Shown here piece after piece: positions 3,426 to 6,984 of a stretch of 10,239 nt of DNA (within the stretch, counting starts at the first letter, position 1; each line of letters begins with the position of its first letter). Origin of the DNA: a virus (lineage: Duplodnaviria; Heunggongvirae; Uroviricota; Caudoviricetes); IMG/VR virus record IMGVR_UViG_2711768060_000003; one strand, given 5' to 3'. The position numbers and the translations under genes were made by a program. The notes under the pieces were generated by a model. It was not told where the DNA came from. It saw nothing but the letters and a program-made list of their open reading frames with translations, and did no database searches.

Positions 3426-4937
3426 ATGGGTTTTTTTGATAAAGCACTTGGCGCAATTGCGCCAGGGTGGGCAGTTTCGCGCGCCAGAAACAAAATGCTG
3501 CTGAGAGCTTATGAGGCGGCGCAGCCTTCACGCCTGAATAAGGCGCGGCGCGAGAGCCGTTCTGCCGATACAGCGGTTTTTTCTGCCGGTACCTCGTTAA
3601 GGGAGCAGGCCAGGGCACTGGATGAAGATCACGATATCGTGATTGGTCTGCTGGATAAGCTGGAAGAGCGGGTTATTGGTGCGCAGGGGATCCAGGTTGA
3701 ACCACAACCACTGAGAAGCGATGGCACCCTGCATGAATCGCTGGCAGAGCAGATCTCGGCATTGTGGTCTGAATGGTCTGTTCGCCCTGAGGTCACGGGG
3801 ATGTTCACCCGCCCGGAGGCTGAACGGATGGCGTTGCGGTCTGCTTTGCGCGATGGTGAGATGTTCGTACAACTGGTGCGTGGTCCTGTCGCCGGTCTGA
3901 ATCATTCCACTGTGGTGCCATTATCTCTGGAACTGCTCGAAGCAGATTTTGTTCCGGTCAGTCTGAACACGAATGCGGGTCAGCAAGTCCGTCAGGGCAT
4001 TATTCTTAACAACTGGGGACGACCCGTAGGGTATCGGGTTTATAAATACCATCCTGCAAATATGCGCGGATTCAGCGCCGATCTCAAAACTGTTCACGCA
4101 GACAGCATGCTTCATCTGGCGATGCGGAAACGGCTTCATCAGGTGAGAGGTGTCAGTCTGTTACATGGTGTGATTCGCCGGATTGCTGATCTGAAAGATT
4201 ACGAAGAATCAGAGCGTGTGGCTGCCCGTATTGCTGCCGCGCTGGGTTTCTACATTAAGCGTGGTGATGCCGCCAGCTTTCCGACGGATAACGACTGGAC
4301 ACCCACAGAACAAAAACCCCGGTACTTTGATATTTCACCGGGCATGATTTTTGACGAACTGGCCCCCGGTGAAGATCTGGGGATGGTGGAGTCGAATCGT
4401 CCGAATGTTCATCTTTATGAATTCCGGAACGGGCAGTTGCGTGCTGTGGCTGCCGGAACCCGTGGCAGTTATTCCAGTATTGCCCGTGACTATAACGGTT
4501 CCTACAGTTCGCAGCGCCAGGAGCTGGTGGAAGGTTACGAAGGCTACGGGGTTTTACAGCAGTGGTTTGTCGGTCAGTACAGTCGCCCGGTGTACCGGGC
4601 ATGGCTGGAGCAGGCAATACCTTTTCTTGATATTCCTCCTGATGTGGATATGTCCACACTTTTCAATGCCACTTATCTTGGGCCAGTGATGCCGTGGATT
4701 GATCCGGTGAAGGAGGCTGCAGCATGGCGGGCCATTCTTCGCGGTGGTGCCGGGACGGAGGCCGAGTGGATACGTGCCCGTGGGCAGTCACCGCAGGAGG
4801 TTAAACGTCAGCGACTGCGTGAAACTGAATTTAACCGGGAAAACGGGCTGGTGTTCGATTCTGACGCCGCTAACGATAAAGGAGCGATCCCTGATGCAGC
4901 AAATGATAACCCCGCGTCTTCGCGGGACGATGATTAA
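3426..4937 (+). CDS. Portal protein (503 aa)
   Basis: Size and position (after terL and W, before the prohead protease). N-terminus GFFDKALGAIAPGWAVSRAR…RAYEAA is typical of portal proteins as recalled. GAGG Shine-Dalgarno 6 nt before the ATG. Confidence 0.85.
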   Translation: MGFFDKALGAIAPGWAVSRARNKMLLRAYEAAQPSRLNKARRESRSADTAVFSAGTSLREQARALDEDHDIVIGLLDKLEERVIGAQGIQVEPQPLRSDGTLHESLAEQISALWSEWSVRPEVTGMFTRPEAERMALRSALRDGEMFVQLVRGPVAGLNHSTVVPLSLELLEADFVPVSLNTNAGQQVRQGIILNNWGRPVGYRVYKYHPANMRGFSADLKTVHADSMLHLAMRKRLHQVRGVSLLHGVIRRIADLKDYEESERVAARIAAALGFYIKRGDAASFPTDNDWTPTEQKPRYFDISPGMIFDELAPGEDLGMVESNRPNVHLYEFRNGQLRAVAAGTRGSYSSIARDYNGSYSSQRQELVEGYEGYGVLQQWFVGQYSRPVYRAWLEQAIPFLDIPPDVDMSTLFNATYLGPVMPWIDPVKEAAAWRAILRGGAGTEAEWIRARGQSPQEVKRQRLRETEFNRENGLVFDSDAANDKGAIPDAANDNPASSRDDD

Positions 4938-6984
4938 TTCCCGCGCCAGCCTTGCGGGGGTGGATGCCGCTAATGGTCAGTGCTGGTACGAAATCCGTGC
5001 ACAGACTGCCGGGCGGGTGGAAATTTACCTCTATGACGTGATTGGAGGATGGGGCATCACCGCGCAGCAGTTTATTGCTGACTGTAAGGATGCGGGGGTG
5101 TTTGAGGCCAGCGCTATTGATCTGCATATCCACAGCCCGGGCGGTGATGTGATGCAGGGGTTTGCCATCTTTAACACGCTGTCACGGCTGAAAGCGAAGG
5201 TGGATATCTGGGTGGATGGTGTTGCAGCCAGCATGGCCTCCATGATTGTCTGCCTGCCTGGCGCCACAGTGCATATGCCTGAAAATTCCTGGCTGATGGT
5301 GCACAAGCCGTGGGGCGGGATCGCCGGTGATTCCGATGATATGCGTGATTATGCCGACTGGCTGGATCGCAATGAGCAGCTGATGCTGTCAGCCTACATG
5401 AATAAAACCGGACTCGGGCAGGAGGAGCTGGAAGCCATGCTGAAAGCAGAAACCTGGATGAACGGTGCAGAAGCCGTGGAAAAAGGCTTCGCTGATACGC
5501 TTGAACCTGAATTACAGGCTGCGGCCTGTGTGAATCAAAATAAACTGAAGGATTACCATAATATGCCAGAACAGCTTAACGCGCTTTTTGCTCCGCGTGC
5601 AGAAACGACGAACGGACAGCAGCAGGAACCGAAAACAGCCCCGCAAAATGCACAACAGACAACTGCTCAGCAGGTGCCATCAACCGGAAATGTGGATATC
5701 AGCGCAATTGCTTCGCAAGTTCAGCAACAACTGATGGCAGCCAATGCGGAACGTGTGCAGGCTGTAACTGCAATCTTTGCCTCTTTCCCGTCTTATGCCG
5801 ACCTGAAAGCGGAGTGCCTGAACGACATGACCTGTACGGAAGCACAGGCCCGTGAAAAACTGTTGCAGGCGCTGGCAGCCGGAACGACACCAAGTGCAGG
5901 TCCGGGAGCCATTCATATTCATGCCGGGAACGGTAATCTGGTTGGCGATTCTATTCGTGCGGCTGTCATGGCGCGCGCCGGATATGCTGAAGCAGAAAAA
6001 GACAATGCCTATAACGGCTTTACACTGCGTGAACTGGCGCGTGCCTCGCTGGTTGATCGTGGCATCGGTATTTCCGGACATTCCGCGCCCATGGCGATGG
6101 TCGGGCTGGCATTTACCCACAGCAGCAGCGATTTCGGCAATATCCTGATGGATGTGGCTCATAAAGCTGCGTTGCAGGGCTGGGATGATGCCAGCGAAAA
6201 TTTTGACAAATGGACCCGCAAGGGAACGCTGACTGATTTTAAAACCGCGCATCGTGTCGGGCTGGAAACTTTCCCGACGCTACGAAAAGTATTGCCGGGG
6301 GCTGAATATAAATATGTGACCCTGAAAGATCGTGGCGAACCGATTGCACTGGCGACTTATGGTGAATTGTTCAGCATTGATCGCCAGACCATCATCAATG
6401 ATGACCTGGATATGCTGACCCGTATTCCGATGGCAATGGGGGCGGCAGCGCGTACTACCGTGGGTGATCTGGTCTGGGCCGTGTTGACCAGTAATCCGAA
6501 AATGTCGGATGGCAAACCGTTGTTCCATGCAGATCATGGCAACCTTGTGACTGCCGATTTGTCTATTGAGGGGCTGGATTCCGGGCGTAAAGCCATGCTG
6601 CTCCAGAAATCGGGTGACCGTCGCCTGAACATTCGTCCTGCTTTTATGTTGACGCCTGTTGCCATTGAGTCGCGTGCCAATCAACTGATTAAGTCTGCCA
6701 GCGTGCCCGGTGCAGATGCGAACAGTGGCATTATTAATCCGATTCAGAATTTTGCCACGGTTCTGTCAGAGGCCCGTCTTGATGACAGCAGTCCGACGGA
6801 TTATTACCTGGTGGCAGCGCAGGGGCGTGACACGATTGAAGTGGCTTACCTTGACGGTATTGATACGCCGTATCTGGAGCAGCAACAAGGCTTTACGGTT
6901 GATGGTGCAGCATTCAAGGTGCGCATTGATGCCGGAGTAGCGCCGCTTGACTGGCGTGGCATGGTCAAAGTGAAAAAACAATAA
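4894..6984 (+). CDS. Prohead protease (S49/ClpP-like) - scaffold-like linker - major capsid protein fusion (about 696 aa from ATG 4894)
   Basis: N-terminal domain carries the serine peptidase motif VDGVAASMASM (nt 5218-5244). Middle is a Gln/Ala-rich low-complexity segment. C-terminal ~360 aa is a capsid-sized domain followed by a strong terminator. AAGGAG lies 9 nt before ATG 4894; the ORF is open from 4744 and ATG 4903 or 4930 are alternatives. Overlaps the portal end. Confidence 0.85.
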   Translation: MQQMITPRLRGTMINSRASLAGVDAANGQCWYEIRAQTAGRVEIYLYDVIGGWGITAQQFIADCKDAGVFEASAIDLHIHSPGGDVMQGFAIFNTLSRLKAKVDIWVDGVAASMASMIVCLPGATVHMPENSWLMVHKPWGGIAGDSDDMRDYADWLDRNEQLMLSAYMNKTGLGQEELEAMLKAETWMNGAEAVEKGFADTLEPELQAAACVNQNKLKDYHNMPEQLNALFAPRAETTNGQQQEPKTAPQNAQQTTAQQVPSTGNVDISAIASQVQQQLMAANAERVQAVTAIFASFPSYADLKAECLNDMTCTEAQAREKLLQALAAGTTPSAGPGAIHIHAGNGNLVGDSIRAAVMARAGYAEAEKDNAYNGFTLRELARASLVDRGIGISGHSAPMAMVGLAFTHSSSDFGNILMDVAHKAALQGWDDASENFDKWTRKGTLTDFKTAHRVGLETFPTLRKVLPGAEYKYVTLKDRGEPIALATYGELFSIDRQTIINDDLDMLTRIPMAMGAAARTTVGDLVWAVLTSNPKMSDGKPLFHADHGNLVTADLSIEGLDSGRKAMLLQKSGDRRLNIRPAFMLTPVAIESRANQLIKSASVPGADANSGIINPIQNFATVLSEARLDDSSPTDYYLVAAQGRDTIEVAYLDGIDTPYLEQQQGFTVDGAAFKVRIDAGVAPLDWRGMVKVKKQ

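Follow-up and report, generated by a model that had tools for sequence, protein, structure and literature searches.

A conserved internal start codon points to a probable nested scaffold-capsid gene within a phage protease-capsid fusion gene

Introduction

How is the ratio of protease to capsid protein set when a single reading frame encodes both? This question is raised by a gene in the virus record IMGVR_UViG_2711768060_000003 of IMG/VR (Duplodnaviria; Heunggongvirae; Uroviricota; Caudoviricetes), of which we analyzed a stretch of 10,239 nucleotides, hereafter the window. An open frame runs on the plus strand of the window from position 4744 to 6984; its best start is ATG 4894, giving 696 codons that encode a protease, a scaffold-like segment and a major capsid protein in that order, and the same start is called by the Prokaryotic Genome Annotation Pipeline (PGAP) in a 91%-identical prophage of E. 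coli A19. A preliminary description of the locus, drawn up from the DNA letters, read the gene as encoding one polypeptide and asked how the stoichiometry of its parts is controlled. Here, we describe a conserved translation-start signal inside the frame, at codon 224, and argue that the gene probably works as an in-frame nested gene pair, yielding a minor 75-kDa protease-scaffold-capsid protein and a major 51-kDa scaffold-capsid form.

The protease-capsid fusion itself is already known: it is curated by NCBI, published for one phage, and widespread. NCBI holds two full-length hidden Markov models (HMMs) for such fusions, NF045540 (scaf_prot_MCP1) and NF045541 (scaf_prot_MCP2). In Pseudomonas phage MD8, the protease, scaffold and capsid proteins have been argued to come from the single gene 5 (PMC8508860). 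Fusions of ClpP with gpT have been reported in a Paracoccus virome paper, and a Microbacterium phage paper describes the protease-scaffold-capsid fusion as a common feature of small actinophages. An internal start is mentioned neither in the MD8 paper (PMC8508860) nor in the annotations of family members.

Codon 224 carries a conserved start signal

We compared the window gene with 87 homologous loci from Gammaproteobacteria (Enterobacterales, Pseudomonas, Shewanella, Pasteurellaceae, Oceanimonas and Psychromonas), which share 47-97% amino-acid identity and were all checked for frame continuity. Codon 224 is ATG in all 87 loci, representing 83 distinct sequence contexts, and in 79-83 of these contexts it is preceded by AGGA at positions -14 to -11. 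When eight fused homologues are aligned, Met224-Pro225 stands out as invariant amid the otherwise poorly conserved end of the protease domain. The AGGA is kept even though the residues that it encodes change between K-D, E-E, E-D, Q-E, G-D and E-N. Moreover, G fills the third-codon position at -13 in 80 of 83 contexts, as compared with 33% of lysine codons and 41% of glutamate codons ending in G elsewhere in the open reading frames (ORFs), and the third positions next to it are near-random.

A start codon and a Shine-Dalgarno (SD) sequence occur together at only two of the 647 well-occupied alignment columns, namely residue 1 (78% of homologues) and residue 224 (100%). In the other columns, the SD frequency has a median of 1%. 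The internal ATG also lies in the weakest mRNA structure of the ORF, with a minimum free energy (MFE) over 60 nt of -4.9 kcal/mol, versus -11 to -19 kcal/mol elsewhere, and a local GC content of 0.37. The long-form start is more structured (-8.9) and is GTG in 38 of 78 homologues, while the internal start is always ATG. Overall, these patterns suggest that the AGGA ahead of codon 224 is under synonymous-site constraint as part of an initiation signal. The single frame of the preliminary description stands, but its single polypeptide does so less securely: the conserved internal SD and ATG 5563 probably imply a second, protease-free product.

The same signal accompanies a different protease domain

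In fusions of the NF045541 type, a different protease domain, which is non-ClpP, precedes a scaffold-capsid module that is homologous from the internal Met onward. Of 76 viral contigs of this type, 97% have a start codon at the internal column and 95% an SD sequence. A third set, comprising 45 loci, shows the internal start in 82%, and in a fourth set, related to P0192, 30 of 30 have it when counted without alignment, using the (S/T)DF motif of the capsid domain as anchor. A dip in MFE at the internal ATG appears in both sets tested for it, the NF045541-type fusions and the third set.

Three further attempts contributed nothing to these counts. A column scan of the P0192-related set returned no dominant column (maximum 0.29), the linker being too variable to align; a P0133-related set consisted of near-identical F10/MD8-like prophages that added no information; and an apparent near-invariance of M1 in one alignment (A5) arose where MAFFT placed the first Met of the query on the first residue of the long proteins, and was left unused as evidence.

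The long frame is conserved alongside the internal start. Sampled relatives keep the fused frame, almost all with 650-800 codons or more. About 6 of 11 inspected cluster representatives with lengths of 443-480 aa begin with "MP", indicating that gene callers sometimes pick the internal start; sampled viral-contig relatives of these "MP" representatives are almost all long fused ORFs, and a scan with P0141 for stand-alone scaffold-capsid genes gave none. Because the long frame and the internal start are both conserved, both appear to be under selection, as a nested gene pair predicts.

A side observation concerns the relationship between the two curated families. In a comparison of NF045540 with NF045541 fusions (loci L089 and L090), the scaffold-capsid module is shared, the proteases are unrelated, and the boundary of homology lies near the internal Met. 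This boundary resembles a protease-domain swap at the nested start.

A model with two translation starts

We propose a model in which one frame has two translation starts, whose relative strengths would determine the ratio of protease to capsid. Ribosomes starting at ATG 4894, which falls within the last part of the portal gene, would make the 75-kDa protease-scaffold-capsid protein, and those starting at ATG 5563 would make a 51-kDa scaffold-capsid protein, similar to HK97 gp5, that would form the bulk of the shell. Sharing a capsid domain, the two forms would co-assemble on the portal, with the capsid domain of each long subunit sitting in the shell and its protease facing inward, such that a few long subunits would bring the protease inside the prohead. 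After assembly, the Ser113/His137 protease would strip the protease, linker and scaffold from all subunits to leave a capsid protein of roughly 35-38 kDa, which would then be decorated by the downstream cement protein. A separate internal start yielding a protease-free form would allow shells to contain few proteases, a candidate answer to the stoichiometry question.

Alternatively, the gene might encode a single polypeptide, with every subunit measuring 75 kDa, protease and capsid present at 1:1, and trimming occurring in cis or in trans. The internal ATG and AGGA would then play no role in initiation, and Met-Pro would be kept for reasons of protein function. We judge this unlikely, yet it has real points in its favor: the long ORF is kept as one frame in almost all relatives, published descriptions speak of one protein, and the long-form SD is strong. 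Several observations weigh against a nested pair. Pro225 is invariant as a residue, so a requirement at the protein level, for instance a cleavage site, may account for part of the signal. The internal SD of the window is moderate (duplex energy -5.5 kcal/mol), and its 10-nt spacing lies at the long end of the functional range; since the long-form SD is the stronger of the two (-7.9 versus -5.5), sequence alone does not predict which form dominates. Rough volume arithmetic indicates that 415 full-length subunits could fit in a T=7 prohead, leaving room for a 1:1 design. In addition, the homologues are phylogenetically related, so that our counts are not counts of independent events, and none of the papers returned by our literature searches describes an internal start for a gene that fuses protease and capsid.

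Against a single polypeptide, a constraint on the protein leaves unexplained the G at -13 (80/83, versus the 33-41% expected) and the retention of AGGA through residue changes (K-D, E-E, Q-E, G-D, E-N). Also left unexplained are the local minimum in mRNA structure and GC content, and the recurrence of the signal with an unrelated protease domain.

The fused frame is genuine and conserved

The window gene is a member of the curated ClpP-like prohead protease/major capsid fusion family NF045540. It matches the NCBIfam model over its full length, with 938.1 bits against a cutoff of 475 and with residues 42-694 aligned to profile positions 2-651 of 652. The PHROGs database places residues 26-695 in phrog_133 (8e-290). 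Pfam identifies CLP_protease at residues 73-202 (1.5e-29), Phage_capsid_4 (PF25209) at residues 385-693 (1.4e-51), and Mu gpT (PF10124) at residues 457-549 (7.8e-8). Phage copies of the NF045540 fusion are 52-84% identical to the window protein, including the product of MD8 gene 5 at 56%. For just the scaffold-capsid module, relatives number 10,124 among representatives of 50%-identity clusters; most of the best 150 of these are 620-750 aa long, equivalent to the fused length.

Separate protease and capsid genes could have been joined artificially, by a sequencing or assembly error or in a decayed prophage; the preliminary description accordingly pointed to stops, frameshifts and split genes in relatives as the features to look for. 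We found the protease-to-capsid frame uninterrupted in about 80 of the 87 loci, which span many genera. Among the exceptions, one has a frameshift, one runs into a contig end, and three are N-truncated, lacking the N-terminal 125-133 residues. In 76 phage genomes, the match spans at least 80% of the fusion protein in one piece, and almost all of about 110 further loci situated away from contig edges have ORFs of 650-800 codons or more. Among 2,912 database proteins matched at E<=1e-10, the best 120 are near-full-length and contain both Pfam domains, and NCBI curates a full-length HMM. On the other side stand the frameshift near residues 368-380 of locus L072, the disrupted copies in PAN70 and VT1-Sakai, and split arrangements in distant phages such as Vibrio phage K272, where a ClpP-like protease accompanies a separate, unrelated capsid gene. 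We assign an artificial origin next to no probability: the protease-scaffold-capsid fusion is genuine and conserved. The preliminary description's single ORF joining these three parts is likewise borne out by Pfam, by NF045540, and by a structural model of residues 224-696 (described below).

Two of the exceptional loci merit individual description. L072, on the chromosome of Citrobacter murliniae 24249, is 81-87% identical to the window gene, and its +1 frame change is the only internal frameshift among the 87 loci; it represents either a sequencing error or a decaying prophage. In Kluyvera genomosp. 1 (NZ_LGHZ01000021.1, positions 115935-125071), two fusion genes (L077 and L086) lie about 2.6 kb apart, the second without the first ~133 residues of the protease. 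These may belong to tandem or recombined prophages.

A ClpP-type protease domain

Sequence comparisons identify the protease as S14 ClpP-type, not S49, and proteolytic activity is predicted. Of the label "S49/ClpP-type" in the preliminary description, the ClpP part holds and the S49 part does not, as a Pfam search returned no S49 model at E<=0.01. The serine motif GVAASMASM noted there is present at residues 109-117, with Ser113 aligned to the ClpP active-site serine. Ser113, His137 and Glu186 are invariant in two alignments (A1 and A2). Glu186 aligns with the position of the ClpP catalytic Asp, and its invariance suggests that phage proteases of this lineage use either a Ser-His-Glu triad or a Ser-His dyad.

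These features bear on another explanation for the internal start, in which the short form alone is functional and the upstream protease is untranslated or a dispensable relic. Some gene callers do start at the internal Met, and three genomic copies are without the N-terminal 125-133 residues. The protease is nonetheless highly conserved, with Ser113 and His137 intact, and it has its own start and SD in 78% of homologues. With in-frame continuity itself conserved and no other protease gene in the head module, we consider it very improbable that the short form alone is functional.

Linker, scaffold and capsid domain

By predicted structure, the protein's C-terminal part is an HK97-fold capsid preceded by an N-terminal helical scaffold-like segment. 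We modeled the proposed nested product (residues 224-696) with AlphaFold2 (AF2) using a diverse alignment of 70 sequences, and obtained a mean predicted local distance difference test (pLDDT) score of 88.1. Foldseek searches with this model returned 355 PDB matches at E<=1e-3, and the best 50 are all HK97-fold capsid or encapsulin shell proteins, in agreement with the capsid fold that the preliminary description had expected. The capsid domain of the model matches the capsids of HK97, T5, JBD30 and D3. Profile comparisons of the C-terminal part with the PDB independently match the capsids of JBD30 (8rkx, 8e-12) and Mu (9jod, 1.2e-10). An AF2 model of the full-length protein, built on a shallow alignment of 28 sequences at >=75% identity, had a mean pLDDT of 47; it was useless for the capsid domain and was replaced by the model above.

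The preliminary description placed a Gln/Ala-rich helical linker between protease and capsid. A Gln-rich part is real (residues 233-268), but it is predicted to be disordered, and the helices form a separate segment at residues 269-329. In the model of the nested product, residues 224-268 are disordered and Q/T/P-rich, and in homologue alignments the 233-268 linker is weakly conserved and variable in length. Counted along the nested product, the predicted scaffold helices span positions 46-72, 76-87 and 93-106. Their block-mean pLDDT values are mostly 93-98, and the segment is helical in the full-length model as well.

Between the scaffold segment and the capsid domain, pLDDT is low at residues 112-122 of the nested model (approximately 335-345 of the full-length protein). 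This junction contains the motif HIHAGNGN, of which H341, I342, A344 and G345-N348 are invariant in alignment A1, and it may be the maturation cleavage site. The motif is almost invariant across the ClpP-type family (A1) and absent from NF045541-type relatives (A4).

Comparison with known systems

The closest counterparts of the window gene are other NF045540 members, namely Pseudomonas phages MD8 (gp5) and F10 (gp5), E. coli phages cdtI and mEp460, and Citrobacter phage Chris1. All show the same domain order in the same position between portal and cement genes, and nothing substantive sets the window gene apart from them. The NF045541 fusions of Rhodobacter phage RcHotPocket (gp10) and Shewanella phage 1/44 share the homologous scaffold-capsid module and the same internal start, but have a non-ClpP protease. 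The protease-scaffold-capsid fusions of small actinobacteriophages, compared by description only, have a similar arrangement.

The proposed organization has precedents in nested protease and scaffold genes. Mu genes I and Z follow the same scheme of nested protease and scaffold. Phage lambda C and Nu3 are established as nested protease and scaffold genes with an in-frame internal start (Shaw & Murialdo 1980, as cited in PMC8508860). As in lambda, the long form of the window gene would be a protease with a C-terminal scaffold, a shorter protease-free protein would arise from an in-frame internal start on the same mRNA, and the shared C-terminal part would target the protease into the prohead. 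In the window gene, however, the shared part includes the whole capsid protein, so that scaffold and capsid together, instead of just the scaffold, would make up the nested product. The proteases also differ: that of the window is S14 ClpP-type and that of lambda is S49, and the herpesvirus/HK97 type is different again.

The preliminary description drew a comparison with lambda gpC, to which likeness is weak: hhalign detected no clear homology between the window protease and lambda gpC (probability 5%, E 0.0079). Nu3 is annotated inside lambda C from gpC residue 239. This start falls in the region that aligns with the protease domain and is therefore not positionally homologous to Met224. We rejected placing the Nu3 start on Met224, as the hhalign alignment of gpC is too weak for this, and regard the likeness to lambda as one of principle only.

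The same nested logic has been detected by ribosome profiling for gp17 and gp17.5 of the archaeal virus HFTV1, in a preprint that also cites UL26 and UL26.5 of herpes simplex virus 1 (HSV-1; doi 10.64898/2026.09.13.751334). With HK97 gp4 and gp5, the resemblance lies in the proposed short form, which would have the gp5 layout of an N-terminal helical scaffold (delta) followed by an HK97-fold capsid, the scaffold presumably being removed by the protease. The HK97 protease is encoded by a separate gene, whereas the window protease is an N-terminal extension of the same frame, and the window capsid belongs to the Mu gpT/JBD30 branch.

Implications for protease-capsid fusion genes

We lean slightly toward a broader reading, in which the protease-capsid "fusion" genes of NF045540, NF045541 and their wider relatives (~10,000 clusters at 50% identity) are in-frame nested pairs that make protease-free scaffold-capsid protein in bulk, with the full-length protein as a minor, capsid-embedded carrier of the protease. 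If so, the principle of lambda C/Nu3, HSV-1 UL26/UL26.5 and HFTV1 gp17/gp17.5 would extend to cases where the capsid protein is part of the shared region, and current annotation would miss the main capsid precursor (51 kDa) in thousands of phage and prophage genomes.

A functional internal start would explain how several hundred capsid subunits come with few proteases although one fused gene encodes both. The nested mode of protease delivery, found in lambda, in herpesviruses and in one archaeal virus, would then be able to take in the capsid gene too, and an unannotated 51-kDa precursor would affect how proteomic and structural data on these proheads are read. The fusion as such is ordinary; the conserved internal start, of which our searches of the literature gave no description, offers a testable answer to the stoichiometry question and raises the interest of the locus modestly.

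Genomic context

The gene lies in a prophage, where it is the head-shell gene within a lambda-like head module (Table 1). This lambda-type module comprises a DUF1441 small terminase, a gpA-type large terminase, a small ORF at the gpW position, a lambda-family portal, the fusion gene, a cement/decoration protein, and a gpFII-like attachment protein. The start of the long form overlaps the portal ORF (3426-4937) by 44 nt. The order of portal, fusion gene and cement protein is identical in all six phage relatives examined, and in these phages as in the window the fusion gene is the sole capsid gene between portal and cement protein. The head module contains no further gene for a capsid, a scaffold or a protease.

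Table 1. Positions of the fusion gene, its proposed nested product, their parts and the adjoining genes in the window.
Feature	Coordinates	Strand	Basis
Long form: ClpP-like protease + scaffold + major capsid protein; 696 aa, 75.2 kDa	4894..6984	+	NF045540, PHROG 133, PGAP
Long-form Shine-Dalgarno AAGGAG, 9 nt upstream of ATG 4894, within portal gene 3' end	4879..4884	+	
Proposed nested product from Met224: scaffold + major capsid protein, 473 aa, 50.7 kDa	5563..6984	+	Conserved start and SD
Internal Shine-Dalgarno-like AAGGA, 10 nt upstream of ATG 5563	5548..5552	+	AGGA conserved in homologues
ClpP-related head maturation protease domain (residues 43-202)	5020..5499	+	NF045542 1.6e-57; Pfam CLP_protease 73-202; PDB ClpP matches to 1.9e-16
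Codon of Ser113, predicted catalytic Ser in GVAASMASM (residues 109-117)	5230..5232	+	Aligned with ClpP active-site Ser in GMAASMA
Codon of His137, predicted catalytic His (MVHKPWGG)	5302..5304	+	Aligned with His of ClpP MIHQPWGG
Codon of Glu186, aligned at ClpP catalytic Asp position	5449..5451	+	Alignment
Q/T/P/A-rich disordered linker (residues 233-268)	5590..5697	+	pLDDT <50 in both models; composition
Three-helix scaffold (delta-like) segment (residues 269-329)	5698..5880	+	Predicted structure
Flexible junction with conserved HIHAGNGN motif (residues 330-348); candidate maturation cleavage region	5881..5937	+	
HK97-fold major capsid domain (Mu gpT/JBD30-like), ~37.7 kDa, from residue ~349	5938..6981	+	Pfam, profile vs PDB, Foldseek
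Lambda-family portal gene, directly upstream, overlapping long-form start	3426..4937	+	PF05136 5.9e-89
Cement/decoration protein gene (DUF2190/Phage_cement_2), directly downstream	7012..7386	+	PF09956 8.3e-27

Three ORFs around these genes gave no Pfam match: a 74-aa ORF at 3193-3417, which lies between terminase and portal at the lambda gpW position and whose counterpart in the E. coli relative bears the label hypothetical, and the ORFs at 7657-8475 and 8472-9038, between the head and baseplate genes. The module as a whole is mosaic, with lambda-type head genes (588-7772) followed directly by baseplate genes of a P2/Mu-type contractile tail (8728-10239). These baseplate genes encode baseplate V and GPW/gp25, and in the relative from E. 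coli A19 they continue with J and I.

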